From a virus (taxonomy: Duplodnaviria > Heunggongvirae > Uroviricota > Caudoviricetes), in IMG/VR virus record IMGVR_UViG_3300017722_002988, positions 3,760 through 67,759 of that record: DNA of 64,000 nucleotides; one strand, written 5' to 3'. Numbering within the stretch: the stretch's first letter is position 1; every line of letters begins with the position of its first letter. The notes beneath the pieces were generated by a model. It had not been told where the DNA came from. It saw only the letters and a list, made by a program, of their open reading frames with translations, and made no database searches. Shown one piece after another: positions 2,651-46,179 of the stretch. The position numbers and the translations under genes were made by a program.

Positions 2651-4710
2651 TGTCCCTCATTAAATTGACAGATGGCTTCAAAGTAAATCAGGCAGAGCAA
2701 TTCCTAGAGAGTTTCTCCGAGACGGACAAAGCGTTCTACTACATGTTCTTCGGCCGCCATATTCCTTGGACAAACGGAGCCGTGCCCGACGTGTCGATTT
2801 CTGCACAGGTAACAGATATCGACACATACAACCACATGATCTTCGCCAAGCGCATCGCTGAGACTGATGTTTGCATATCTATTCCTAGAATCGACTGGGT
2901 AACTGGTGTCGTCTATACTCAATACGATCATAGAACAGTAGATCTGCAATCTGAAAATTTCTATGTCGGCGTGCTGGAAGGCGACAACTACAATGTCTTC
3001 AAATGCCTATACAACAACAATGGCGCGGTGTCAACAGTGGCGCCTTCCTTTGCTGCATTCTCGCTAGTAGAGACTGCAGATACTGAGACGTACGACGGAT
3101 TTTATGAAACAGCTGATGGTTATCAGTGGAAATATATGTACACCGTCGGCGCTGACGATTTCACCAAGTTTGCATCGAACTCCTATGTCCCGCTGGTTGC
3201 GAACACTGAGGTAAGAGACTTTGCTGTCGGTGGTGCGATTGATGTTATCCAAGTTGAAACGGCCGGGTCAGGCTACAACAACTTCTTCGCCGGCGAGTTT
3301 GCGCTCGGATCTGACATCGGATACCTTGGTAACACGACGTACTTTGGTGTGAGAACAGCTAACAACGTATCTCCATCTGCTGCAAACGGGTTCTATACCG
3401 GGTGCATCATGAAGATCACAGCCGGTCGTGGTATGGGTCAGTTCCGTACCGTTATCGACTACATCAACAACGGTGCTGCTCGTTACGTCATCCTAGACGA
3501 CTCATTTACGATTCTACCAGATACCACATCCACCTTCGAAATCTCACCTAAGGTCACCGTCCTAGGCAGAGCCACAACTAATGCTGTCGGTCGTGCTATT
3601 TTGGGTACAGGCAACAGTGTCGTCCAGGTTGAAATGCTTGATCGAGGTGCTGGATACTTCACGGCCTCGGCTGTTATCGAACAATCCAATGTAGCCGTTG
3701 AATCCAACACCGCTGTGTTGGTCCCACTCATCCCGCCCAGGGGCGGCCACGGGTCTAATCAGACCACTGAGCTTGGAGCACATTGGGTCACGATCAGCAC
3801 AACGATCACAGGCAGCGAAAACGGCGTTATTCCAACTGGTCAACAGTTTGCTCAAGTTGGCATTATCAAAAATCCAATATTCTCAAATGTAGAATTGACG
3901 ACTGTCAAGTACTCTAACAACGCTACTGCTGGTCGCGATGGTGGGTTTGTCGAGGGCGAAACCATCATAGTCTTTGACCCAGTCCGTCAAGCCGGATCCG
4001 TGTCTGTTACCTCTGGAAACACGTTCATTGTGTCGACTAATACGACCCTTCTGTCTATGGATGTGCATGTCTTCCCTCACGACCGGGCTTTTGTCTGTGC
4101 GGCTAACGGGTCTGAATGGTTTGTGTCCACAATCGTATCATCCAACGCAACGCACCTAGTAATGCAGGAAAGCTGCCCATTTACGGATAACTCCGCCGTC
4201 TTGCACATTTCCTATTCTAACACCTCGGCTATTCACGTTGAATCTGGCCCAACATATTCGTATGTAACAAACGCAACTCCATTCTTTGCTAACAATGATT
4301 CCATCATTGGGTTAACGACATACTCCACAGCAGTAATCACTGATATGCAAATCAACAACAACGCCATTAATGACTTCAGCGTTGTGAAGCAACTCTCCTC
4401 CATTGCTATCTCTAGCCCGCTATCTACCTTTACTGCTGACGAGTATCTGTCTGATGCTGATGAAGTGAACTCTTGTTACTTCCATTCGTACGCCAATGCG
4501 TCCCACATATATGTTACCGGCGTTGTTGGTGATATGGCGGCCGGAACTATTCTTCGTAACCCAACTACGTCTGCATCCATTGTTGTGGCTAATAAATACA
4601 ACGGTGAGCTTGTCCCAGAGTCTGGTTCAGTCATTTATGTTGAGAACCATGAGCCTGTTTCACGTGAGACTAGCACTACTCAGACTAAGAAAATCACCGT
4701 GGAGTTCTAA
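2650..4710 (+). CDS. gp8: Baseplate wedge subunit gp8
   Basis: Motifs 'YYMFFGRHIPW', 'IPRIDWVTGVVYTQYD', 'YNVFKCLYNN', 'DGYQWKYMYTV' characteristic of gp8. Confidence 0.85.
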   Translation: MSLIKLTDGFKVNQAEQFLESFSETDKAFYYMFFGRHIPWTNGAVPDVSISAQVTDIDTYNHMIFAKRIAETDVCISIPRIDWVTGVVYTQYDHRTVDLQSENFYVGVLEGDNYNVFKCLYNNNGAVSTVAPSFAAFSLVETADTETYDGFYETADGYQWKYMYTVGADDFTKFASNSYVPLVANTEVRDFAVGGAIDVIQVETAGSGYNNFFAGEFALGSDIGYLGNTTYFGVRTANNVSPSAANGFYTGCIMKITAGRGMGQFRTVIDYINNGAARYVILDDSFTILPDTTSTFEISPKVTVLGRATTNAVGRAILGTGNSVVQVEMLDRGAGYFTASAVIEQSNVAVESNTAVLVPLIPPRGGHGSNQTTELGAHWVTISTTITGSENGVIPTGQQFAQVGIIKNPIFSNVELTTVKYSNNATAGRDGGFVEGETIIVFDPVRQAGSVSVTSGNTFIVSTNTTLLSMDVHVFPHDRAFVCAANGSEWFVSTIVSSNATHLVMQESCPFTDNSAVLHISYSNTSAIHVESGPTYSYVTNATPFFANNDSIIGLTTYSTAVITDMQINNNAINDFSVVKQLSSIAISSPLSTFTADEYLSDADEVNSCYFHSYANASHIYVTGVVGDMAAGTILRNPTTSASIVVANKYNGELVPESGSVIYVENHEPVSRETSTTQTKKITVEF

Positions 4711-34020: not shown

Positions 34021-36105
34021 ATGGCATTCAGCGTTTCAGCGGGTGTGAACATTTCTGAGATAGACCTCACTACGATCGTGCCTGGTACCTCTACCACTGA
34101 GGGCGCAATCGCAGGCGTCTTTGGATGGGGACCCGTCGGCGAAGCCACTCTGATCAGCAACGAAAGTGCTCTTGCTGCTCGTTTTGGTAAGCCAACCAAC
34201 AATAACGCAGAGACCTGGTTTGTCGCTGCTGACTTCCTGTCCTATGGCAACTCGCTTCTCGTCACGCGTGCAGCAAACACCACTGATGCCGCTGGCACGG
34301 TCGGCGTTCTGTCTGCTATCGCAAACACCGGTTCGGCTAACCTGGTTAACCACGTTGTTAAGAGCGCTGCTGACTGGGAAGTTAAAGAAGACACCGTCGA
34401 CTCCGACGTTCACTTCATTGCTCGTTACCCAGGCACTATGGGTAACTCCCTGCGTGTTGCAGTCTGCGAAACCGCAAATCAGTTCAGCTCTACAGTCGCT
34501 AACACGACTATCTTCCCAGCCAACGCATCGATCAACGTTGCTTCTGCTGCTATCTCGTTCGTTTCAGGTGACCGCTTCGGTACTGTTACGATTGCTGCGG
34601 CGAACGCAACTATTCTTGACACGGTCGTAGACGGCTATGCTACCACGACCAAGGCGTCCCTGGCTGCCGCTGTCATTGAGGGCGACCTCCTGCTGGTCAA
34701 TGGGCAGTATGTAAAGGTTGCCAACATTGCGACTCCAACTGTTGCATCTACAGCAAACGGCTATGTTGCCTCGATCAAAATCAATCTTGCTGACGAGTAT
34801 ACGCAGCTGGGAACGACCACGACCCGTGACCTTAGCCGCTTCTGGGAGTTCTCGACTGTTGTTGATGGTGCCCCTGGTCAGTCCGAATATGTCGCGGCTC
34901 AAGGTAACACTGCAGCAAGCGACGAAGTTCATGCTGTCATCGTCGATGCTGGCGGTGTCTTCACGGGCGTCCCTGGCCAAGTTCTGGAAGTCTATCAGAA
35001 CCTGTCGCGTGCAACTAACGCACGTTCCCCAGACGGTCAAAACATTTACTACAAGAACGTCATCAATGATGGTTCCAACTATGTTTGGGCTGGTGCTGAT
35101 CGTGCTAACGCTGCATCCGCTACGGCAACTGCTATTGCCAGCGCAACTAACGCTACACCTCTGAACATCCGCATGGCCGGCGGTTCTGATGGTGCTGCTG
35201 AGGACGCTGTAACACTGGCGGTTCTTGCTGCTGCATACGACACCTTCACCAATGCCGAGCAGGTCGATGTTTCGATCATCATGGCTGGTAAGGCGGTCGG
35301 TGGTTCCGTGGGCGAAGGCCTGGCTAAGTACATCAAGGATAACGTCGTTGACACCCGTCTCGACTGCGTTCTGACGGTATCCCCTCCACGCGCTTCCGTT
35401 GTCAACAATGTCGGTTCCGAGGCATCTAGCATCGTTGCATTCCGCAATGCGCTGGGCAGCTCTTCGTACCTCATCATGGACTCCGGTTACAAGTACCGCT
35501 ATGACAAGTACAACGACGTATACCGCTACGTTCCACTGAATGGCGACATTGCTGGTCTCATGGTTCGCACCGACTCTACTCGTGACCCTTGGTTCTCCCC
35601 AGCTGGTTTCAACCGTGGTCAAATCAAGAACATCGTTAAGCTTGCATGGAACCCAGACAAGGCAAACCGTGACACCCTCTACAAGAACGGTGTTAACCCT
35701 GTCGTAACATTCCCAGGCCAAGGAACAATCCTGTACGGTGACAAGACTCTGCTGGCTAAGCCATCGGCGTTCGACCGCATTAACGTGCGCCGTCTGTTCA
35801 TCGTTCTGGAGAAGGCTATCGCTACGGCCTCCAAGTTCACTCTGTTCGAGTACAACGATGAGTTCACCCGTGCTCAGTTCCGTTCGCTAGTCGAGCCATT
35901 CCTGCGTGATGTTCAGGGCCGTCGTGGTATCTACGATTTCCGCGTCGTCTGTGATGAGTCCAACAACACCGGCGAGGTCATTGACCGCAACGAGTTCGTT
36001 GGTGACATTTACATCAAGCCAGCCCGTTCTATCAACTTCATTCAGCTGAACTTTGTGGCCGTTCGTTCGGGCGTCGAGTTCTCTGAGGTTGTAGGCAAGT
36101 TCTAA
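34021..36105 (+). CDS. gp18: Tail sheath protein gp18
   Basis: 'SAGVNISEIDLT', 'FGWGPV', 'PWFSPAGFNRG', 'SAFDRINVRRLF'. Confidence 0.97.
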   Translation: MAFSVSAGVNISEIDLTTIVPGTSTTEGAIAGVFGWGPVGEATLISNESALAARFGKPTNNNAETWFVAADFLSYGNSLLVTRAANTTDAAGTVGVLSAIANTGSANLVNHVVKSAADWEVKEDTVDSDVHFIARYPGTMGNSLRVAVCETANQFSSTVANTTIFPANASINVASAAISFVSGDRFGTVTIAAANATILDTVVDGYATTTKASLAAAVIEGDLLLVNGQYVKVANIATPTVASTANGYVASIKINLADEYTQLGTTTTRDLSRFWEFSTVVDGAPGQSEYVAAQGNTAASDEVHAVIVDAGGVFTGVPGQVLEVYQNLSRATNARSPDGQNIYYKNVINDGSNYVWAGADRANAASATATAIASATNATPLNIRMAGGSDGAAEDAVTLAVLAAAYDTFTNAEQVDVSIIMAGKAVGGSVGEGLAKYIKDNVVDTRLDCVLTVSPPRASVVNNVGSEASSIVAFRNALGSSSYLIMDSGYKYRYDKYNDVYRYVPLNGDIAGLMVRTDSTRDPWFSPAGFNRGQIKNIVKLAWNPDKANRDTLYKNGVNPVVTFPGQGTILYGDKTLLAKPSAFDRINVRRLFIVLEKAIATASKFTLFEYNDEFTRAQFRSLVEPFLRDVQGRRGIYDFRVVCDESNNTGEVIDRNEFVGDIYIKPARSINFIQLNFVAVRSGVEFSEVVGKF

Positions 36106-36242: not shown

Positions 36243-36794
36243 ATGGCTTTCAATATCAACGAGATCCGTTCTCAGCTGACCTACGGTGGCGCTAGACCGA
36301 ACCTCTTCCAGGTTCAGTTCAGCAACCCAGCGAACGGCGCTGGTGACCTGAAGGTCCCATTCCTCGTTCAAGCCGCTGAGATTCCAGCCGCAACCCTTAG
36401 CGAGATCCAAGTTCCATACTTTGGTCGTACGATTAAGGTAGCAGGAAACCGCACTTACGGAAACTGGACAGTCACCGTCATGAACGACGAAGACTATCTC
36501 ATCCGTAACGCCCTTGAGCAGTGGTCTAACCGCATCAACTCCTTCGAAGGCAACGTTCGTACCTTCGGTGGCCCAGAGTCCAGCCGCTACAAGTCGACTG
36601 GCCGTGTTACTCAGATGTCCAAGGACGGTCGTGCGCTCCGCACCTACCGTTTCAATGGCATCTTCCCTGTTGACGTTTCTGGTATCGGCCTCAACTGGGC
36701 TGACAACGACCAGATTGAAACGTTCCAGTGCACGTTCGCTTACGACTGGTGGGATATCGACACCAGCATCACCGGCAATGCCGGCGGCGTCTAA
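36243..36794 (+). CDS. gp19: Tail tube protein gp19
   Basis: 'GGARPNLFQV', 'VPYFGRTIKVAGNRTY..WTVTVMNDED', 'IETFQCTFAYDWW'. Confidence 0.95.
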   Translation: MAFNINEIRSQLTYGGARPNLFQVQFSNPANGAGDLKVPFLVQAAEIPAATLSEIQVPYFGRTIKVAGNRTYGNWTVTVMNDEDYLIRNALEQWSNRINSFEGNVRTFGGPESSRYKSTGRVTQMSKDGRALRTYRFNGIFPVDVSGIGLNWADNDQIETFQCTFAYDWWDIDTSITGNAGGV

Positions 36795-36857: not shown

Positions 36858-38444
36858 ATGCAGCTATTTGGCTTTGAGTTCCGTCGAAAAGTAGACACGG
36901 ATCCATCAGTACAACCTGACTCATTCGCACCTGAGGTGAACGAAGACGGAGCTGTAAATATTTCTACGGGAGGTGTTTATGGCACTTCCATTGACCTCGA
37001 TGGATCTATTCGCTCTGAAGCAGAGCTAATCACCAAATACCGTGAAGCTGTTCAGAACCAAGAACTGGACACTGCAGTCACGAAGATCATTAACGAAGCT
37101 ATCGTGCAAGATGAAGACAACGAGGTTGTCAAAATCGTGTTGGATAGGCTTGAGTTTGGTGATAACGTCAAGAAGATGATCTCGGATGAGTTCGCGTACG
37201 TCACGGATCTACTTGATTTCAACATTTCCCCTTACAAGATATTTGAAAACTGGTACGTAGACGGCCGTCTGTACTACCACGTGATCATTGACCCGAAAGA
37301 TCCAAAGGCTGGCATCAAAGAGATGCGATACCTGGATCCGCGTAAGATTCGCAAAGTCAAAGAGACCAAGTCTAAGCGCATGGCTCAAGGCGTTGTGGTC
37401 AAAGAGGTTGCTAAGGAATATTACATCTACTCTGACCGTATTCTGAATACGAAGCAGGTTTCAGGTCAGTCTACAAACGATGGTGCCCTGAAGATTGCTA
37501 AAGACTCGATCATCCATGTCACCTCTGGGCTAACTAGCCCTAACGGGGACATGATCCTGTCATATCTGCAGAAAGCATTGCGGCCTCTGAATCAACTGCG
37601 GGCTCTGGAAGATAGCCTGGTCATTTACCGCATCTCCCGTGCGCCTGAACGCCGGATCTTCTATATCGACGTTGGTAACCTGCCAAAGGCCAAGGCTGAG
37701 CAGCACCTTCGCGACATCATGAACAAGTTCAAAAACAAGCTCGTATACGATGCATCCACCGGTGCTATTAAGGATGACCGCAAGTTCATGACCATGCTGG
37801 AAGATTTCTGGCTCCCACGCCGTGAAGGTGGTAAGGGAACCGAGATCACTACTCTTCCAGGTGGGCAGAACCTTGGTCAGATCGATGACATCACATACTT
37901 CCAGAAGAACCTCTACAAGTCCTTGAACGTGCCCATCAGCCGTCTAGATTCTGAACAGGCCTTCAATCTTGGTCGTTCTAGCGAGATTTCACGAGACGAG
38001 CTGGAGTTCTCGAAGTTCATCACCCGCCTGCGTTCTTCATTTGCACAGCTATTTGTCAAGACACTTGGCACCCAGCTAATGTTGAAGAATATCGTCACGC
38101 CTGAAGATTGGGAACAGATTAAAGGTAAAATCCGTTTCAACTTCAACAAAGACAACTTCTATGAAGAACTGAAGGAAACTGAGATTCTCCGTGAGCGTAT
38201 TACTATGCTTCAACAGATTGACGATTATGCTGGCAAGTATTACTCGCACAAGTGGGTTCGTACTAAGGTTCTTCGTCAGACTGAAGAAGAAATGAAGGAA
38301 GAAGACAAGCAAATCAACAAAGAAGTTGATATGCCGCAATATCAAGCAGTAGAAGATGCAGCGCCTGGCACTGATGCTGGAGGCGGTGATGGTCAAATGG
38401 ATCAGCCACCAGCACCTGGCACGCCTGTCGGACCAGATCGCTAA
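36858..38444 (+). CDS. gp20: Portal protein gp20
   Basis: 'WYVDGRLYYH', 'YRISRAPERRIFYIDVGNLPKAKAEQHL', 'EDFWLPRREGGKGTEITTLPGGQNLG'. Confidence 0.97.
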   Translation: MQLFGFEFRRKVDTDPSVQPDSFAPEVNEDGAVNISTGGVYGTSIDLDGSIRSEAELITKYREAVQNQELDTAVTKIINEAIVQDEDNEVVKIVLDRLEFGDNVKKMISDEFAYVTDLLDFNISPYKIFENWYVDGRLYYHVIIDPKDPKAGIKEMRYLDPRKIRKVKETKSKRMAQGVVVKEVAKEYYIYSDRILNTKQVSGQSTNDGALKIAKDSIIHVTSGLTSPNGDMILSYLQKALRPLNQLRALEDSLVIYRISRAPERRIFYIDVGNLPKAKAEQHLRDIMNKFKNKLVYDASTGAIKDDRKFMTMLEDFWLPRREGGKGTEITTLPGGQNLGQIDDITYFQKNLYKSLNVPISRLDSEQAFNLGRSSEISRDELEFSKFITRLRSSFAQLFVKTLGTQLMLKNIVTPEDWEQIKGKIRFNFNKDNFYEELKETEILRERITMLQQIDDYAGKYYSHKWVRTKVLRQTEEEMKEEDKQINKEVDMPQYQAVEDAAPGTDAGGGDGQMDQPPAPGTPVGPDR

Positions 38445-38448
38445 ATCT

Positions 38449-38456
38449 TATAAATA
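38449..38456 (+). promoter_or_regulatory. T4 late promoter TATAAATA
   Basis: Exact consensus, upstream of the prohead-core region. Confidence 0.85.
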
Positions 38457-38476: not shown

Positions 38477-38647
38477 ATGCCTCAAGATCAACGTATTCTA
38501 GACATCATCGCTGCCTCTTCTGAACAGAGACCAGCTGATGTTGGAGCTATTGTTAATGAGCTAATCGGAGAGCGCATTCATGCTCTGATCGATCAGCGCC
38601 GTGATGACACGCGTGCGAATTTCTTCCCAGAAATCGACTCCGAATAA
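38477..38647 (+). CDS. Small prohead core protein (gp67-like; 56 aa; not in ORF track)
   Basis: Manual translation MPQDQRILDIIAASSEQRPADVGAIVNELIGERIHALIDQRRDDTRANFFPEIDSE; RBS GGAG; position right after the portal gene. Confidence 0.65.
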   Translation: MPQDQRILDIIAASSEQRPADVGAIVNELIGERIHALIDQRRDDTRANFFPEIDSE

Positions 38648-39350: not shown

Positions 39351-41975
39351 TTGACACAGAATCTCGAAGAGAGCGTAAAGATCGTCAAGAACGCCCTTGA
39401 GGCCGGCGGCGTTTATCCTGATGCTGTTAGCAAAAACAATGATGGTCACATCATTGTTCGCGACGGTTTTTTCTACAAGTCTGGCCGCACGGCCGAGGGT
39501 CACACTCACAAGATCAAAAAGGCTTTGGACGCTGCTGGTATCAAGCACTCTATCGTCGATGATGGTGAGCATAATGCTCCGTTCCGTGGCGGAGCCTCTG
39601 TAGCTAGAAATTCGCATTTCTACACACACATCAAACTGCATGAAGACACTCTTACTGAGTCAGCTGCGAACCGCCCAGACCACTTTGCCTTTACACACAC
39701 TCCAGGCGACTCTGAGTCAGAGCGCAAACTGGCAAAGCTTAAGAGCGTAGTTAGTGACCACAATAAAACCTCTGATTTCAAGCTAAGGGTGCTTGCAAAA
39801 GGTCGTATGGGTAAAGACAACCCTAACGCTGAAAAGTATAAGCGCGATCACACTGGCCGCACAGCTAGACCGAACTCGCATGGCTATCAGACGATCACCT
39901 TGGCTGACGCCAAGCACCACGATCTATACGTCGCACCTCGAAACGAGTCAGACGCAAGTGGCCGTAGCCATGAAGATCAAAGAACACACCACGCTATCGC
40001 GCGGAATGTGACTGGTTACTTCAAACATGCTACTGGGCTAAATATGCAAGAAGAAGTTATCAACGAAGTTTCTAAGGATCTACTGAAGCGCTATGTCGCT
40101 AAAGGCGATAGGTCCTACGACCAACTGAATGACAAGGCGTACAACGCCTGGAAGTCTTCAGACGATCTTCGCGATAATCCAGCAGCGTACAAGAAAACGA
40201 CCGACGCCGCAGTTAAGTTCGGCCGCAAAGCTGACCGTCGGGCCCTCAGCCTCAACAAGGCAGATGCACGTCTAGCGGAAGAAATGACAACATCACAGCG
40301 TCATGACAAACACTATGATGAGCAACCAGAGCACGTCAAGAATAATTTGAACACCCATCTGCGAAATGGTATGACCTACCCAGATGCAGTTGCTAGGGAA
40401 GTTGGAAAACATCAGGGCGCGACTCCTTTGAATGAAGCATATCCATCCGCTGCTGCAATGGCTAGAAAGGCTAAGGCTGTAAAGCAGGCTCGTGCAGTTG
40501 CTACCGGTTATGCTAATCAGAAATCTGGCAAGTGGTCCTCACAATCCTACAAGACTGAAGATGGTCGCTGGGCCTCGAAGGACGTTAAGGAAGAAACTCT
40601 GGTCGAAAGATACAAGAGGGCAACGAGTCGCGTTTCTTTATGGGAAGCATCTTCCCAGACTTTAGTTGCAACTAAAGGCAGCGATAAGGCTAGCCGCTAT
40701 GAAATGCATACTCGTATGCCAGGCGAAGCCAGCGAATATTCTTCCATTATCAAAACTCACCAGGATGGTAAGCCGCTTCAAAATCAATGGGGCGGATACA
40801 ACACACTGCGCACTGGCAAAACTGCTTATGTGAAGAAGCACTTTGATAAGCTTGATGAAGAACTAGATCTGAACGAAGGCACTATCGGTTCTTGGTCTAA
40901 TGCTGGCCCGTTCATTCGTGTCACTAAGGGCACGGATCGTGTTACCAAAAAGCCTGCGCGCCACGTTGAAATTCACGATATGGGAAACAAGACGCGCTTG
41001 ATTACGTCGGTGCACCCAGACTGGAAAAACGAAGATATCAAAAACCACCTGATCAAAACTCACGGCAAGAAGCTCGATAATGTCCACTGGAATCTAGATG
41101 AAGAAGTCATCACTGAGCTTTCTAAAGGAACCCTTGGATCCTATATCAAAAAAGCATCAAACGACGTGGCAAGCAAGGCTGTAGAATACGGCACGAAGAA
41201 GGCCGAGCGTGACGAGGTTGATCGGATCACCAACCGTCACATGAAATATGCTGACAAAGACACGGTTCACCAGGCTCTCAAAACCACTTCGGATGACGTC
41301 GAAGGCCCAAGGGTGAAAGCTGCTAAGCGTATCGGTGGTATCTCTAAGGCAGTCAACAAGCTGACTAACGAAGACGTTCAGCTCGACGAAGCTCCTTACT
41401 ACTCGCTAGAAGCTTCCAAAGCCCGTATGGCCAAGGAAAAGGCACGCGCTGCAGCCAAGGCCGCAATCGCTGCAGCTAAGGCGGATTCTTCTATTGCTAG
41501 AAAAGAAGCCAGGGAAAATAGATCCCTCCACATTGCTCGTCATATCGAAGCCGAAGTAGGCAACCACTATCCTGACTCTGATGGCTTCGAAGCGATCAGC
41601 AACAAAGTTAGGAAAATGGGCATCCCACACCATGAAGTAATTGATCACCTGGATAAAGCTGCTCGCAAGCACCTCGGAGCCAAGAGCTTTGACCACTACG
41701 TGGATAATTTCCACAAAGATTATCAGGGTTCAATGAACGAATCTAAAACCGATCAATCTAGGGTGATTGCCGACCACATCAAAAACGAAATCAGCCCAAA
41801 CCGTAAGGCAAACAAAAGCTTTATGTCTCTCAGTCAGAAACTTAGGGGTATGGGTATTCCAGCCCATGAAGTAGGTGATCGTTTAAGCCATGCAGCCCGT
41901 AAACACTTAGGTGCTAGAGACTTCCACGCTTACGCAGACAAGGTTCATAAGCACACTAAAGGAATATCTAACTAA
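39351..41975 (+). CDS. 874-aa basic modular protein, putative internal head polyprotein (TTG start)
   Basis: Located between portal and gp21; basic His/Lys-rich modules separated by acidic E(E/D)-x(1-2)-[LIM]-x-E linkers. Confidence 0.7.
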   Translation: MTQNLEESVKIVKNALEAGGVYPDAVSKNNDGHIIVRDGFFYKSGRTAEGHTHKIKKALDAAGIKHSIVDDGEHNAPFRGGASVARNSHFYTHIKLHEDTLTESAANRPDHFAFTHTPGDSESERKLAKLKSVVSDHNKTSDFKLRVLAKGRMGKDNPNAEKYKRDHTGRTARPNSHGYQTITLADAKHHDLYVAPRNESDASGRSHEDQRTHHAIARNVTGYFKHATGLNMQEEVINEVSKDLLKRYVAKGDRSYDQLNDKAYNAWKSSDDLRDNPAAYKKTTDAAVKFGRKADRRALSLNKADARLAEEMTTSQRHDKHYDEQPEHVKNNLNTHLRNGMTYPDAVAREVGKHQGATPLNEAYPSAAAMARKAKAVKQARAVATGYANQKSGKWSSQSYKTEDGRWASKDVKEETLVERYKRATSRVSLWEASSQTLVATKGSDKASRYEMHTRMPGEASEYSSIIKTHQDGKPLQNQWGGYNTLRTGKTAYVKKHFDKLDEELDLNEGTIGSWSNAGPFIRVTKGTDRVTKKPARHVEIHDMGNKTRLITSVHPDWKNEDIKNHLIKTHGKKLDNVHWNLDEEVITELSKGTLGSYIKKASNDVASKAVEYGTKKAERDEVDRITNRHMKYADKDTVHQALKTTSDDVEGPRVKAAKRIGGISKAVNKLTNEDVQLDEAPYYSLEASKARMAKEKARAAAKAAIAAAKADSSIARKEARENRSLHIARHIEAEVGNHYPDSDGFEAISNKVRKMGIPHHEVIDHLDKAARKHLGAKSFDHYVDNFHKDYQGSMNESKTDQSRVIADHIKNEISPNRKANKSFMSLSQKLRGMGIPAHEVGDRLSHAARKHLGARDFHAYADKVHKHTKGISN

Positions 41976-42373
41976 TGCCAGTATCACCTAACATTGTTAT
42001 CAACCGCGAGAATTCATCTGCAGTATTTCACTTCAACGCCAATACAAGTGGCATTGTTGTTGCAGGAAATAACTCGGTTAGCAACGTTGCTATCGAAGAA
42101 GAAGTAATCACTGGGGTCACTATTACCCAGGCAGCGTACGGTTCCACGCCTGGTGCGTATTGGCACGTCCAAAGAGGTTCTAATACTGCTGTAGTCCTAG
42201 ACTCTACTGGATTCATCGACTTCGCTGGCATTGGAATGCCCATAAATAAAGACATCGCTGCTGATATTTCGGTAACGTTGATTCCGCCAGAGGGCAGCGC
42301 TGTTCCTTCCAAGGGCTTCCTTGTCCTTGAGGTACAGAAGCAAAACGCTCGCCTAGAATATCTAGCCGACTAA
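41975..42373 (+). CDS. Conserved hypothetical beta-rich protein upstream of gp21
   Basis: TAATG coupled; fills the gap in the head operon. Confidence 0.65.
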   Translation: MPVSPNIVINRENSSAVFHFNANTSGIVVAGNNSVSNVAIEEEVITGVTITQAAYGSTPGAYWHVQRGSNTAVVLDSTGFIDFAGIGMPINKDIAADISVTLIPPEGSAVPSKGFLVLEVQKQNARLEYLAD

Positions 42374-42386
42374 GGAGACTACCATA

Positions 42387-43052
42387 ATGAAGCTGTTCCT
42401 AGACATCGCTGAGGACGTTCAGTACATCGAAGAAGCCGCAGGCGAGGATGGAAAGAAATCCCTGTTTATTGAGGGTGTTTTCCTTCAGGGCGGCATCAAG
42501 AACCGTAACGGTCGCATGTACCCGTCTCAAATTCTTGAGAACGAGGTCGCACGTTATACTAAGGAGTCGATCGCAGCTAACCGTGCTTACGGCGAGCTTG
42601 GCCACCCATCTGGCCCAGCTATCAACCTAGACCGTGTGTCACACATGATCAAGGAGCTCCGTAAGGATGGCAACAACTATATCGGTAAAGCTAAGATCAT
42701 GGAAACGCCGATGGGTAACATCGTCAGGAACCTGATCAAAGAAGGTGCTGGTCTTGGTGTTTCCTCCCGTGGTATGGGTACGCTGAAAGCCCAGAACGGA
42801 CTTATGGAAGTTCAGAATGACTTCCGACTTGCAACCGCCGCTGACGTTGTTGCAGACCCATCCGCACCTGACGCCTTCGTTCAAGGCATCATGGAAGGTG
42901 TTGAGTGGATCTGGGAGAATGGTATCTTTAAGCAGGCAACTCTTGAGACGGCCGTTCAGGTCATCGAAAATCACGCTGCTGCACGTACACTGGACAATGA
43001 GCGTAAGATGAAGATCTTCGAAGCGCTACTGTCTGGTCATACAAATCAGTAA
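42387..43052 (+). CDS. gp21: Prohead protease gp21
   Basis: 'NRNGRMYP', 'AYGELGHP', 'INLDRVSH', 'GVSSRGMG', 'DVVADPSAPDAFV'. Confidence 0.97.
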   Translation: MKLFLDIAEDVQYIEEAAGEDGKKSLFIEGVFLQGGIKNRNGRMYPSQILENEVARYTKESIAANRAYGELGHPSGPAINLDRVSHMIKELRKDGNNYIGKAKIMETPMGNIVRNLIKEGAGLGVSSRGMGTLKAQNGLMEVQNDFRLATAADVVADPSAPDAFVQGIMEGVEWIWENGIFKQATLETAVQVIENHAAARTLDNERKMKIFEALLSGHTNQ

Positions 43053-43090: not shown

Positions 43091-44191
43091 ATGCCTAAAG
43101 ACAACAACCCAGAACTCGAAATTGATGACAACGACCTGGATCTAGATCTAGACCTCGAAGACATCGGTCTCGACGAACTTGATATGGACGGTGATGACGA
43201 AACGGTTGTTGCTGAGCAAACCGCTGCTGCCGCAACGATCGCTGCCAAGCCATCTCGTACTGCAACCCTCGCTAACCTGGTTAGCGCTGCTGCAAACATG
43301 TCCGATGAGGACCTGAACAACTTCGCTGCTTCTATCGCACAGCCTACCAACCCAATCGATGGTGGTGCAGCTGCAAAGAACAAAGCGTCTATCGCTACGA
43401 AGACTGTTACCAAGGAAGAGCTTGACTCTCTCTTCGGTGATGAGCTTTCCGAAGACTTCCGCGACCAAGCAACGACTCTGTTCGAGTCTGCTGTAAATGC
43501 ACGTGTCGGTCTTGAAGCTGCTGCCCTGGCTGAAGAGCTTGAGGCTAAGTATGCTGAAACTACCGCTGCTCTGGAAGAGGCTTATGCCGCAACTCTGGAA
43601 GAAGAAGTTTCTGCCCTGACCGACGGCCTGTATGAGCAGATTGACTCTTACCTCAACTATGCTGCTGGAACCTGGGTCGCCGACAATGAAGTTGCTATCG
43701 ACGTCAGCCTTCGTGCTGAAATCGCCGAAGACTTCATGGGCAAAATGAAGGACCTGTTCCTTGAACACAACCTAAACATCCCCGATGAGGCAGAAGACGT
43801 CCTCGCTGAGATGCTTGAAGTCAACGAAGGCCTTGAGACTGAACTGAATGCAGCCCTAGAGCAGATTATCGCCCTAAAGGAAGATAAGCTCGTTGCAGGC
43901 ATTGAGTCTACCTTCGCTGAAGAGACTGTTGGTCTCGCCGCAACCCAGATCGATCGCATTCGTACCCTCGCCGAGGGTATTGAGTCTGATGACCTGAATA
44001 CCTATACCAAGAAGCTTCGTCAGATCAAAGAATCCGTCACGAAGAAGGCTACGCCTTCCACTGGCATTCTGATCGAAGAGGCTCCTGCTATCTCCGAAGA
44101 TCAACTGATCGAAGAGGCTGCTCCAGCTAACGTTGACCCACAAGTCGCTCGTTACATGGATGCAATCTCTCGTACGTCTCGCCCAAAGTAA
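43091..44191 (+). CDS. gp22: Prohead core scaffold gp22
   Basis: Very acidic coiled coil; 'TTLFESAV', 'IDSYLNYAA..WV.DNEVAI'; lies between gp21 and gp23. Confidence 0.9.
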   Translation: MPKDNNPELEIDDNDLDLDLDLEDIGLDELDMDGDDETVVAEQTAAAATIAAKPSRTATLANLVSAAANMSDEDLNNFAASIAQPTNPIDGGAAAKNKASIATKTVTKEELDSLFGDELSEDFRDQATTLFESAVNARVGLEAAALAEELEAKYAETTAALEEAYAATLEEEVSALTDGLYEQIDSYLNYAAGTWVADNEVAIDVSLRAEIAEDFMGKMKDLFLEHNLNIPDEAEDVLAEMLEVNEGLETELNAALEQIIALKEDKLVAGIESTFAEETVGLAATQIDRIRTLAEGIESDDLNTYTKKLRQIKESVTKKATPSTGILIEEAPAISEDQLIEEAAPANVDPQVARYMDAISRTSRPK

Positions 44192-44266: not shown

Positions 44267-45616
44267 ATGCTACAAGAAGACCTGAACAACAAGTGGGGAC
44301 CCCTGCTGGACCACGCTGATCTAGGTGTCATCAAGGATGATCACCGTCGTCGCGTAACGGCTGTTCTGCTTGAGAACACCGAGCGTGAACTTTCCGCTGT
44401 TGGTTCCATGGCGATGACCGCTAATGGCGGCCAGAGCCTGCTGGGCGAAGCTGCTCCAACGAACGCAACCGGTTCTTCGGTCGATAACTTCGACCCAGTC
44501 CTGATCGGTCTGGTTCGTCGTGCAATGCCTAACCTGATGGCTTATGACGTTTGCGGCGTTCAGCCAATGACCGGTCCAACCGGCCTGATCTTCGCAATGC
44601 GTTCCAAGTACGCAAACCAAGCTGGTGCTGAAGCCTTCTACAACGAAGCAAACACCGGTTTCTCTACGGACGCCAACTCTTCCAACCAAGCTAACACCAT
44701 CGGCAACAAGCATGTCGGCGGCGTTCCAGGTAACTCGACTTCGGTCGCTAACCTTGCTGAGCTGGGTCTCTATAACTTCCGTGGTGGTTCTTCCACTGCT
44801 GCTCTTGAAGGCGGCTTCGGTGCTACCGGAACCTTCCCTGAAATGGCGTTCTCGATCGAGAAGATTGCGGTCACTGCAAAGGGCCGTGCTCTGAAGGCTG
44901 AGTACTCGCTGGAACTGGCACAAGACCTGAAGGCAATCCATGGCCTGGACGCCGAGACTGAACTCTCGAACATCCTCTCCACGGAAATCCTTGCGGAAAT
45001 CAACCGTGAAGTTATCCGTACCATCAACCTGACCGGTAAGCCTGGTTCCCAGGAAGGTACGACCACGGCTGGCGTCTTTGACCTCGACGTTGACTCCAAC
45101 GGTCGTTGGTTGGCTGAGAAGTTCAAGGGCCTGATGTTCCAAGTTGAGCGTGAAGCCAACAAGATTGCCAAAGACACTCGTCGCGGCAAGGGTAACATCG
45201 TCATCTGCTCTTCGGACGTTGCGTCCGCTCTTCAGATGGCCGGTGTTCTGGACTATGCGCCTGCGCTGAACTCCAACGCTCTGAACGTTGACGACACGGG
45301 CAACACCTTCGCAGGTGTCCTGAACGGTCGTTACCGCGTCTATATCGATCCATACGCAACGGGCAACTACATGACCGTCGGTTACAAGGGTTCCAACACC
45401 TTTGACGCTGGCCTCTTCTACTGCCCTTACGTTCCACTGCAAATGGTTCGTGCTGTTGACCCTGACACCTTCCAGCCAAAAATCGGCTTCAAGACGCGTT
45501 ACGGCATGGCTCCTAACCCATTCGCTAAGGGTGCTGCTGAAGCTGACGCTAACGCTGCTCTGGAAGTTGACTCCAACGTCTACTACCGCAAGACCGCTGT
45601 CACCAACATTATGTAA
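44267..45616 (+). CDS. gp23: Major capsid protein gp23
   Basis: 'FDPVLIGLVRRAMPNLMAYDVCGVQPMTGPTGLIFAMR', 'ELAQDLKAIHGLDAETEL', 'FQPKIGFKTRYG'; likely maturation site LLGE/A. Confidence 0.98.
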   Translation: MLQEDLNNKWGPLLDHADLGVIKDDHRRRVTAVLLENTERELSAVGSMAMTANGGQSLLGEAAPTNATGSSVDNFDPVLIGLVRRAMPNLMAYDVCGVQPMTGPTGLIFAMRSKYANQAGAEAFYNEANTGFSTDANSSNQANTIGNKHVGGVPGNSTSVANLAELGLYNFRGGSSTAALEGGFGATGTFPEMAFSIEKIAVTAKGRALKAEYSLELAQDLKAIHGLDAETELSNILSTEILAEINREVIRTINLTGKPGSQEGTTTAGVFDLDVDSNGRWLAEKFKGLMFQVEREANKIAKDTRRGKGNIVICSSDVASALQMAGVLDYAPALNSNALNVDDTGNTFAGVLNGRYRVYIDPYATGNYMTVGYKGSNTFDAGLFYCPYVPLQMVRAVDPDTFQPKIGFKTRYGMAPNPFAKGAAEADANAALEVDSNVYYRKTAVTNIM

Positions 45617-45726: not shown

Positions 45727-46179
45727 ATGAAAACCTTTCTAGAATACGTGACTGAAGGTGCAGCCGGAGTTTACGCTGCCTATCATATTGCGCCTGAGAC
45801 CAAGGCGGCCATGGCCAAGTTCGTTAAGGATCTTGGAATCAAGAATCCGAGCGATCCTAGTACTCTCCACATCACCACAGTTTACAGCACGAAGCCGATT
45901 CAGTACGAGCCATCAAAGAAAGCTTTGACAGTCAAACCAGTTGGATACGCCTTGTTCGGTCACCCAGATAAGGTCCTAGTTCTGAAGGTCGAGCATCCAA
46001 CACTTCATGAGCGGTTCAAAGTGGCCAGGGACGCTGGAGCTACGTGGGATTACCCGAACTATCAGCCACATATCACACTTGCTACGAGTGTGGATCCGGA
46101 TCTGGACATTTCGAAACTGCCACTTCCAGACTTTGTTCTTGACACAGGCCCTGAGTACACGGAAGCATTAGCCGGCTGA
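45727..46179 (+). CDS. acb1: Anti-CBASS nuclease Acb1-like (T4 gp57B-like) 2H phosphodiesterase; start at MKTFLEY
   Basis: Two HxT motifs ('LHITTVYS', 'QPHITLAT'); 'GVYAA', 'VLVL', 'ARDAGATWDYPNYQPH' match the recalled T4 gp57B layout; RBS GAAGGAG before ATG 45727. Confidence 0.82.
   Translation: MKTFLEYVTEGAAGVYAAYHIAPETKAAMAKFVKDLGIKNPSDPSTLHITTVYSTKPIQYEPSKKALTVKPVGYALFGHPDKVLVLKVEHPTLHERFKVARDAGATWDYPNYQPHITLATSVDPDLDISKLPLPDFVLDTGPEYTEALAG

Follow-up and report, generated by a model that had tools for sequence, protein, structure and literature searches.

A mosaic polyprotein of the head operon as a candidate source of internal head proteins in a T4-type phage

Phage T4 provides the classic example of proteins injected together with phage DNA, its internal proteins (IPs); each known Ip has, to our knowledge, its own gene and its own address tag. 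Could a phage load a whole set of such proteins as a single chain? The question is raised by ORF874 (P0001), an open reading frame (ORF) in the head operon of a T4-type tailed phage (Caudoviricetes). The phage is represented by the IMG/VR virus record IMGVR_UViG_3300017722_002988, a 198,633-bp sequence with direct terminal repeats; the window analysed here is the 64,000-nucleotide stretch that spans positions 3,760 to 67,759 of this record. ORF874 (39351..41975, + strand, 874 amino acids, TTG start, mosaic polyprotein) had been delimited exactly by an original prediction, made from the sequence alone, which took it for the protease-processed precursor of about nine or ten injected head proteins. 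We put the probability that ORF874 is a polyprotein of the prohead core from which gp21 cuts internal head proteins at about two in three. The architecture of the chain, its motif statistics, its mosaicism, its genomic context and a fusion of one of its modules to gp21 are observed directly.

In ORF874, acidic linkers that end in [LIVM]-x-E connect ten modules and a basic peptide of 13 residues; Lys, His and Arg make up 10.6%, 5.8% and 6.5% of the chain. Cuts after the Glu of all 16 [LIVM]-x-E motifs would yield the ten modules, the 13-residue peptide, an N-terminal heptapeptide and five acidic spacers of 5-6 residues with a pI of about 4.2. The predicted modules are 52-131 residues long (5.6-14.7 kDa), and nine of the ten have a pI of 9.1-10.3, the remaining one a pI of 6.2. 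The nine acidic linkers listed at the outset are all present, and two additional sites were found, RLAE/E at aa 310 and LWE/A at aa 432 (a slash marks the predicted cut). The parts of the chain are as follows, in window coordinates:

39351..39371, + strand: N-terminal heptapeptide MTQNLEE/, a candidate removed leader, kept in the close family
39372..39644, + strand: M1 (aa 8-98), constant N-terminal module, alpha/beta sandwich with an FRGGAS motif, 59 representatives
39645..39659, + strand: acidic spacer DTLTE/, between sites E98 and E103
39660..40052, + strand: M2 (aa 104-234), 14.7 kDa, pI 9.7, His-rich, in 26 proteins
40053..40067, + strand: acidic spacer EVINE/
40068..40280, + strand: M3a (aa 240-310), helical VSK..L..Y module, distant kin of M7
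40281..40436, + strand: M3b (aa 311-362), the sole non-basic module, pI 6.2
40437..40592, + strand: M4 (aa 363-414), pI 10.1, starts AYPSAA, in 21 proteins
40593..40646, + strand: spacer ETLVE/ and the 13-residue basic mini-cassette RYKRATSRVSLWE/
40647..40859, + strand: M5 (aa 433-503), in 14 proteins
40860..40877, + strand: acidic spacer ELDLNE/
40878..41102, + strand: M6 (aa 510-584), in 6 proteins, missing from most close relatives
41103..41117, + strand: acidic spacer EVITE/
41118..41390, + strand: M7 (aa 590-680), LSKxTLGSYIKKA..., the most widespread module, 100 domain hits in 84 proteins
41391..41741, + strand: M8 (aa 681-797), constant C-terminal module of the close family, a long helix and a small helical bundle
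41742..41972, + strand: M9 (aa 798-874), a diverged additional copy of the M8 bundle

Several of these units have histories of their own. Where M1 is internal in other proteins, its upstream junction reads QLEE/S or ELDE/S; M2 carries the invariant motifs FTH.PGD and AHHD; and M3b is present or absent in relatives independently of M3a. A distant relationship links the helical modules M3a and M7 (hhalign A6 vs A7, probability 82%, E 1e-5, 69 columns). The last two modules, expected to be paralogues, are 44% identical as proteins and share a 51-nt DNA repeat, D1, at 75% identity (41596 and 41830). Most close relatives end where M8 ends, their alignments stopping at aa 794, so M9 is a lineage-specific extra copy. 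The mini-cassette, RYKRATxRxxLxE/ (window 40608-40646), is flanked by two sites and resembles a mobile peptide unit; it is found again between different modules in P0011 and P0014, and its end is always LxE.

The proposed alternation of basic modules and acidic [LIM]-x-E linkers holds, and the motif is commoner than chance would give. [LIM]xE occurs 15 times in ORF874 against 5.97 expected in shuffled sequences (P=0.0004), and the controls [LIM]xD and reversed E.[LIM] show no enrichment. T4 gp21 cleaves after Glu in (L or I)-X-E, and Asp at P1 blocks processing (PMC9026906); an enrichment confined to Glu fits this rule. The share of Glu residues that lie inside the motif is 28% in ORF874, compared to 11% expected; among the known gp21 substrates of the same phage it reaches 38% in gp22 and 50% in gp21 itself, with sheath and portal at expectation. 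All 16 [LIVM]xE motifs of ORF874 fall at module borders and none in the 798 interior residues, where 4.98 were expected (P=0.003). Similarly, 166 module copies in distant representatives hold 25 interior motifs, compared to 87.3 +/- 8.5 expected, a 3.5-fold depletion.

The borders behave in the opposite way. Sequence comparison places [LIVM]xE directly upstream of every ORF874 module. In distant representatives, a count that leaves out the close family, the motif directly precedes 102 of 127 internal module starts (80%) and lies within three residues of 120, against a background of 2.2% per position; conservation of the linkers in homologues, on which the original prediction had staked itself, is thus what was found. 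For M4, ..[LMI]xE/ precedes 13 of the 15 listed starts, close family included, and in the distant representatives the motif stands directly before three of four starts and within three residues of all four. The joint consensus, E-E-V-E-Q-[LI]-D-E/, is the same whichever module comes next. In the structural models of M1 and M8 the linkers score about 50 or less beside confident cores, so the joints look exposed. A motif favoured at borders and disfavoured inside modules is the pattern that a protease cutting any accessible copy would be predicted to impose.

Module turnover among relatives points in the same direction. A word-based search returned 21 homologues of ORF874 and an exhaustive phmmer search 722 cluster representatives (50% identity clusters), 191 of them at E<=1e-10; all match module by module. 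The stretches matched by phmmer (1-100, 105-200, 231-311, 304-363, 356-416, 424-514, 506-590, 583-680 and 675-796) coincide with the modules. Close relatives have M1 first and M8 last, and the modules between them vary in set and order, as had been proposed when the modules were called swappable. In two related loci (L002 and L003), sheath, tube, portal, protease, scaffold and capsid are 93-100% identical to those of the window, whereas the polyprotein is 45-50% identical overall because modules have been gained and lost; ORF874 is therefore a hot spot of cassette exchange in a nearly frozen structural block. The exchange respects the joints: in 18 homologues, 64% of the breakpoints of high-identity blocks are at most 6 residues from a site, compared to 19% for random positions and a maximum of 38% in 2000 trials.

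Where does this chain sit? A T4-type morphogenesis block surrounds ORF874 in the window:

34021-36105: sheath, T4-type morphogenesis block
36243-36794: tube, T4-type morphogenesis block
36858-38444: portal (Portal_T4, 4e-176)
38449..38456, + strand: T4-type late promoter box TATAAATA, heading the unit orf56-orf219-ORF874-orf132-gp21
38477..38647, + strand: orf56, a small acidic protein in the position of T4 gp67, 89-98% conserved in L002 and L003
38676..39335, + strand: orf219, companion gene of the polyprotein, with a CTS-like leader (CTS, capsid-targeting sequence), a leader module of ~68 aa, a linker and a His-rich domain
41975..42373, + strand: orf132, co-transcribed, in the position of T4 gp68, 88-96% conserved
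42387..43052, + strand: gp21-type prohead serine protease (Peptidase_S77, 6.8e-39; phrog_207, 1e-79; T4 gp21 structure 5JBL, 3.7e-23)
43091-44191: scaffold gp22, T4-type morphogenesis block
44267-45616: major capsid protein gp23, T4-type morphogenesis block
44441..44449, + strand: LGE/A, the predicted gp23 maturation site (Glu61), just ahead of the Pfam Gp23 domain, which starts at aa 72
33977, 36194, 38449, 43055 and 44225, + strand: TATAAATA boxes directly upstream of sheath, tube, orf56, gp22 and gp23

The gene does lie between portal and gp21, as originally stated, but it is adjacent to neither: four genes outside known families, orf56, orf219, ORF874 and orf132, separate the two, and the order portal, orf56, orf219, ORF874, orf132, gp21, gp22, gp23 is retained in L002, L003, L004 and L007. 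The window contains five exact TATAAATA boxes, compared to 0.7 expected, all on the + strand; the phage seems to keep the T4 late-promoter consensus, and the placement of the boxes makes the stretch from orf56 to gp21 look like one late transcription unit. The TTG start of ORF874 follows the orf219 stop by 15 nt and has no Shine-Dalgarno sequence, and relatives have TTG or ATG at the matching codon; this layout suggests translational coupling to orf219. Stop-codon read-through from orf219 into ORF874 was considered and rejected: the two genes are in the same frame in the window, L003 and L004, whereas in L002 their frames differ.

The two remaining genes of the interval were considered as T4 core-protein homologues. 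For orf56 as gp67 and orf132 as gp68 the positions fit and profile support is missing, orf56 having no Pfam or PHROG match and orf132 no match in Pfam, PHROG or cultured phages. The orf132 product is a conserved beta-rich protein whose gene overlaps the ORF874 stop by one base; it contains IEE/EVIT, and the DNA of this segment (42091-42110) repeats the linker DNA at 40043 and 41093.

The gp21-type protease is the presumed processing enzyme of ORF874. Its His (GELGHP) and Ser (GVSSRG) residues, which we take to be the catalytic pair, align to two Ala positions of the crystallised T4 protein (5JBL). A tie between protease and polyprotein is provided by P0026, a protein from the database search whose ORF may be cut at a contig end: in it, the C-terminal part of a gp21-type protease (phrog_207, 5e-8) is joined via LNE/G to M8. 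The companion orf219 ties in as well. It starts MAKTLKTILE/, carries sites at aa 10, 19, 68 and 75, and has the linker DVEQIDE/ between its leader module of ~68 aa and its His-rich domain. The leader module, whose match in PHROGs is phrog_26626 (function unknown, 2e-4), also opens the polyproteins P0013, P0018 and P0019 and the small proteins P0127, P0137 and P0149, and in L007, in the matching interval between portal and protease, leader module and polyprotein are fused; orf219 and ORF874 are therefore two parts of one system. The His-rich domain of orf219 is very rich in His, with HxxH-type runs and the end ..RHHDHVPHEHD, and the protein is 91% identical in L002 and only 69% in L003.

Leaders of the same kind occur elsewhere. 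Small single-module relatives of the polyprotein begin with leaders such as MKTLQE/, MKTMQQQLQE/ and MKTLKQILE/, and at least seven ORFs of 56-525 aa in this genome start with MKTF..[FY][IV].E, a leader very like the T4 CTS (coordinates of the whole record, G000:C1):

49486 (window 45727), 93079, 128590, 129600, 130532 and 138813, + strand: MKTF..[FY][IV].E ORFs
78856, - strand: MKTF..[FY][IV].E ORF

As candidates, these ORFs would each encode one internal head protein by itself; three (336, 311 and 525 aa) lie close together at 128.6-132 kb. One, at window 45727-46179, is an Acb1-like 2H phosphoesterase (PF23474, 5e-28) that starts MKTFLEYVTE/G; judged by this leader, an enzyme directed against the cyclic oligonucleotide-based antiphage signalling system (CBASS) may be addressed to the capsid. 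The joints of ORF874 fit the (L or I)-X-E rule of T4 gp21, as claimed, and so do the LGE/A site of gp23 and the CTS-like leaders; together with the gp21 match, these features indicate that the phage appears to use T4 rules for addressing and processing its head cargo.

What the modules are is harder to say. The whole of ORF874 has no Pfam match at E<=0.01 and no match among PDB sequences, single modules give nothing above noise in Pfam, and in PHROGs the chain retrieves only a weak match of M7 to phrog_5709 (function unknown, 3e-4). AlphaFold (AF2) models were made for M1 and M8; both folds are confident, and neither has a relative in the PDB. M1, with a predicted local distance difference test (pLDDT) score of 92.7 and about 51 for the linker that follows, is a compact alpha/beta sandwich bearing the conserved FRGGAS motif. 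Foldseek found no convincing PDB relative (best E 0.039), and the best VIA-align hit in the PDB, Z 6.4 to tail-terminator-like alpha/beta sandwiches, is in the range of common arrangements. M1 also occurs as a stand-alone protein of about 90 residues, and its only homologue in BFVD is such a protein, viral, uncharacterised and 86 aa long; a BFVD match to a T-even 'Ip7 protein' is non-significant (E 0.098, TM 0.48/0.58). M8 reaches pLDDT 80, with less than 50 for the preceding linker, and its model finds nothing below E 4 in the PDB. M2 gave no usable result in the ESM Atlas. Whole-chain composite alignments that treat ORF874 as one fold (A1, A2) were rejected since MAFFT misplaced most module fragments, and the homology of M1 and M2 hinted at by an overlay in A2 proved an artefact (hhalign A3 vs A5, probability 0.1%).

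Among known systems the T4 internal proteins, which are basic and measure about 8-20 kDa (PMC9026906), come closest. Like IPI, IPII and IPIII (and Alt), with about 8, 10 and 20 kDa in T4, the predicted products of ORF874 are small and basic (6-15 kDa); they are bounded by [LI]-x-E/ in a T4-type phage that has a gp21 homologue, and they come from a hypervariable locus in a genome with CTS-like genes. Unlike the T4 IPs, each encoded by one gene with its own 10-residue CTS, ORF874 places about ten modules in one frame with internal joints, and it opens with the 7-residue MTQNLEE/ instead of a leader of the MKTYQEFIAE type (MKT..[FY][IV].E). No sequence or fold similarity between ORF874 and T4-type IPs emerged in the tests made. 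The basic charge of the modules fits association with DNA, as for T4 IPs; DNA binding and an anti-defence role are conjectures by analogy. The latter is plausible because T4 Ip1, Ip2 and Ip3 each block a distinct GmrSD-type restriction enzyme (PMC12373910).

Two other systems share parts of this design. In phiKZ-like jumbo phages (phiKZ, 201phi2-1, SPN3US), a related prohead protease also cuts many internal head proteins, the inner-body and ejection proteins, after Glu and several times per chain (PMC9026906, PMC10052503). However, each of these genes yields a single mature product once the N-terminal propeptide is gone, arrays of separate mature modules have not been described for them, and their (S or A)-X-E sites have a small residue at P3, compared to Leu or Ile in ORF874. 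Polyvalent proteins (Iyer, Burroughs, Anand, de Souza, Aravind 2017, PMC5512222) likewise combine many shuffled domains in one chain encoded among virion genes, and are predicted to travel with DNA; their 2-15 shuffled domains compare with the ten modules of ORF874, which are in mosaic order among relatives and in the head operon. By contrast, polyvalent proteins carry known enzymatic or anti-restriction domains (MPTase, ART, nucleases, ArdA, DarA) and often their own MPTase peptidase, whereas ORF874 modules have no Pfam match, the chain brings no peptidase of its own, and its joints match the separate head protease of the phage. In a full-text literature search, no publication turned up that describes internal head proteins made as a polyprotein with protease joints.

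Could ORF874 instead be a sacrificial core or scaffold protein, which helps to build or size the prohead, is cut up, and has its pieces expelled before DNA packaging without delivering anything? Its place between portal and gp21 is that of a core protein, and it abounds in gp21-type sites, as does the phage's own gp22. T4 gp22, gp67 and gp68 share this location, late expression and several gp21-type sites per chain, and the T4 core proteins are cut to several fragments that mostly exit the head (PMC9026906). In ORF874, however, the sites are 52-131 residues apart, flank folded, conserved basic domains and spare their interiors, while gp22 has 18 sites in 366 residues; the predicted products equal the retained T4 IPs in size. 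A module set that is not conserved while capsid, scaffold and portal stay 93-100% identical is hard to square with structural sizing, and we consider this account improbable.

The chain might also stay uncleaved, the acidic stretches serving as flexible spacers in a beads-on-a-string protein that acts at full length in the head or is ejected; polyvalent phage proteins can be packaged unprocessed, e.g. the N4 virion RNA polymerase (PMC5512222). But a hydrophobic P3 and a strict Glu at P1 are more than a flexible spacer requires, the corresponding Asp motif is not enriched, the Glu motif is counter-selected inside modules, and it recurs at the ends of the CTS-like leaders and at the gp23 maturation site, all of which make an uncleaved protein unlikely. 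Distant family members outside head clusters would suit a late non-virion protein, i.e., a cytoplasmic multi-domain factor whose place in the head operon is incidental; against the conserved synteny in the head-assembly unit, the module fused to gp21, the leader peptides in common with CTS-like genes and the protease-like motif signature, we find this very hard to credit.

A processed prohead-core polyprotein remains the favoured explanation, and several points weigh against it. The phage is uncultivated and known from its sequence record alone. The module copies in the depletion test are homologous and are not independent samples. M7, 85 of whose 86 distant internal starts are directly preceded by [LIVM]xE, dominates the border statistics, and its acidic EEVEQIDE stretch could belong to the domain rather than to a free linker. 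ORF874 begins MTQNLEE/S, without the canonical 10-residue CTS carried by other genes of this genome, and with TTG and no Shine-Dalgarno sequence its start is weak, which suggests that it is expressed modestly. Lastly, P0020, P0022 and a 682-aa protein of Synechococcus phage S-SKS1 are located outside T4-type head clusters.

These outlying relatives merit description. In tblastn searches of cultured phages, the whole of ORF874, M1, orf132 and orf219 had no match, and M7 had a single one, at 2e-3, to the hypothetical S-SKS1 protein (L006:4474-6522, HQ633071.1). In this 208-kb cyanophage, the protein has an M7-type module after EEFEQLDE/ and further acidic ..[LI]DE/ joints, and its gene adjoins nrdA/nrdB. 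P0022, with about nine LSK-type modules, and P0020 are encoded in phages of another type (L008, L009), next to DUF7207, DUF7201 and replication genes; from these settings, the vocabulary of modules and linkers is not confined to T4-type head operons.

From these observations we only infer incorporation, cleavage, retention, injection and any anti-defence role; the steps would run as follows. The polyprotein would be transcribed late from the box at 38449, in the same unit as gp21, with translation probably coupled to orf219, and the precursor would be built into the prohead interior, with the acidic joints or the constant M1 and M8 at the two ends as candidate entry signals. Once active, gp21 would cleave the exposed acidic joints behind the Glu of [LIVM]-x-E and so release about ten folded basic proteins of 6-15 kDa, the 13-residue basic peptide and the short acidic spacers. 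The spacers would leave the head; the folded basic pieces, too large to leave, would remain with the DNA and probably be ejected with it like T4 IPI-III. M1 and M8 are the constant ends, and the modules between them, with their fast turnover among near-identical phages, would be exchangeable cargo.

More tentatively, and with doubt about the proposal as a whole, ORF874 might be seen as a protein-level cassette array, through which one late gene and the phage's own head protease load exchangeable small basic proteins. These would enter the next host with the DNA and act before phage gene expression, e.g. by inhibiting restriction of modified DNA as T4 Ip1-3 do, and the near-invariant acidic joints would have two uses, cleavage and in-frame recombination, the latter letting modules move between phages.

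If the polyprotein form is real, tailed phages also load cargo by a polyprotein strategy typical of RNA viruses. The placement of [LIVM]-x-E at borders and its avoidance inside modules would then provide a sequence rule for hundreds of candidate injected proteins in metagenomes, and the arrangement would serve as a model from nature for loading T4-type capsids with several foreign proteins. With 722 cluster representatives the family is large, and it is almost absent from cultured phages; a layer of phage-host interaction may thus be unstudied.

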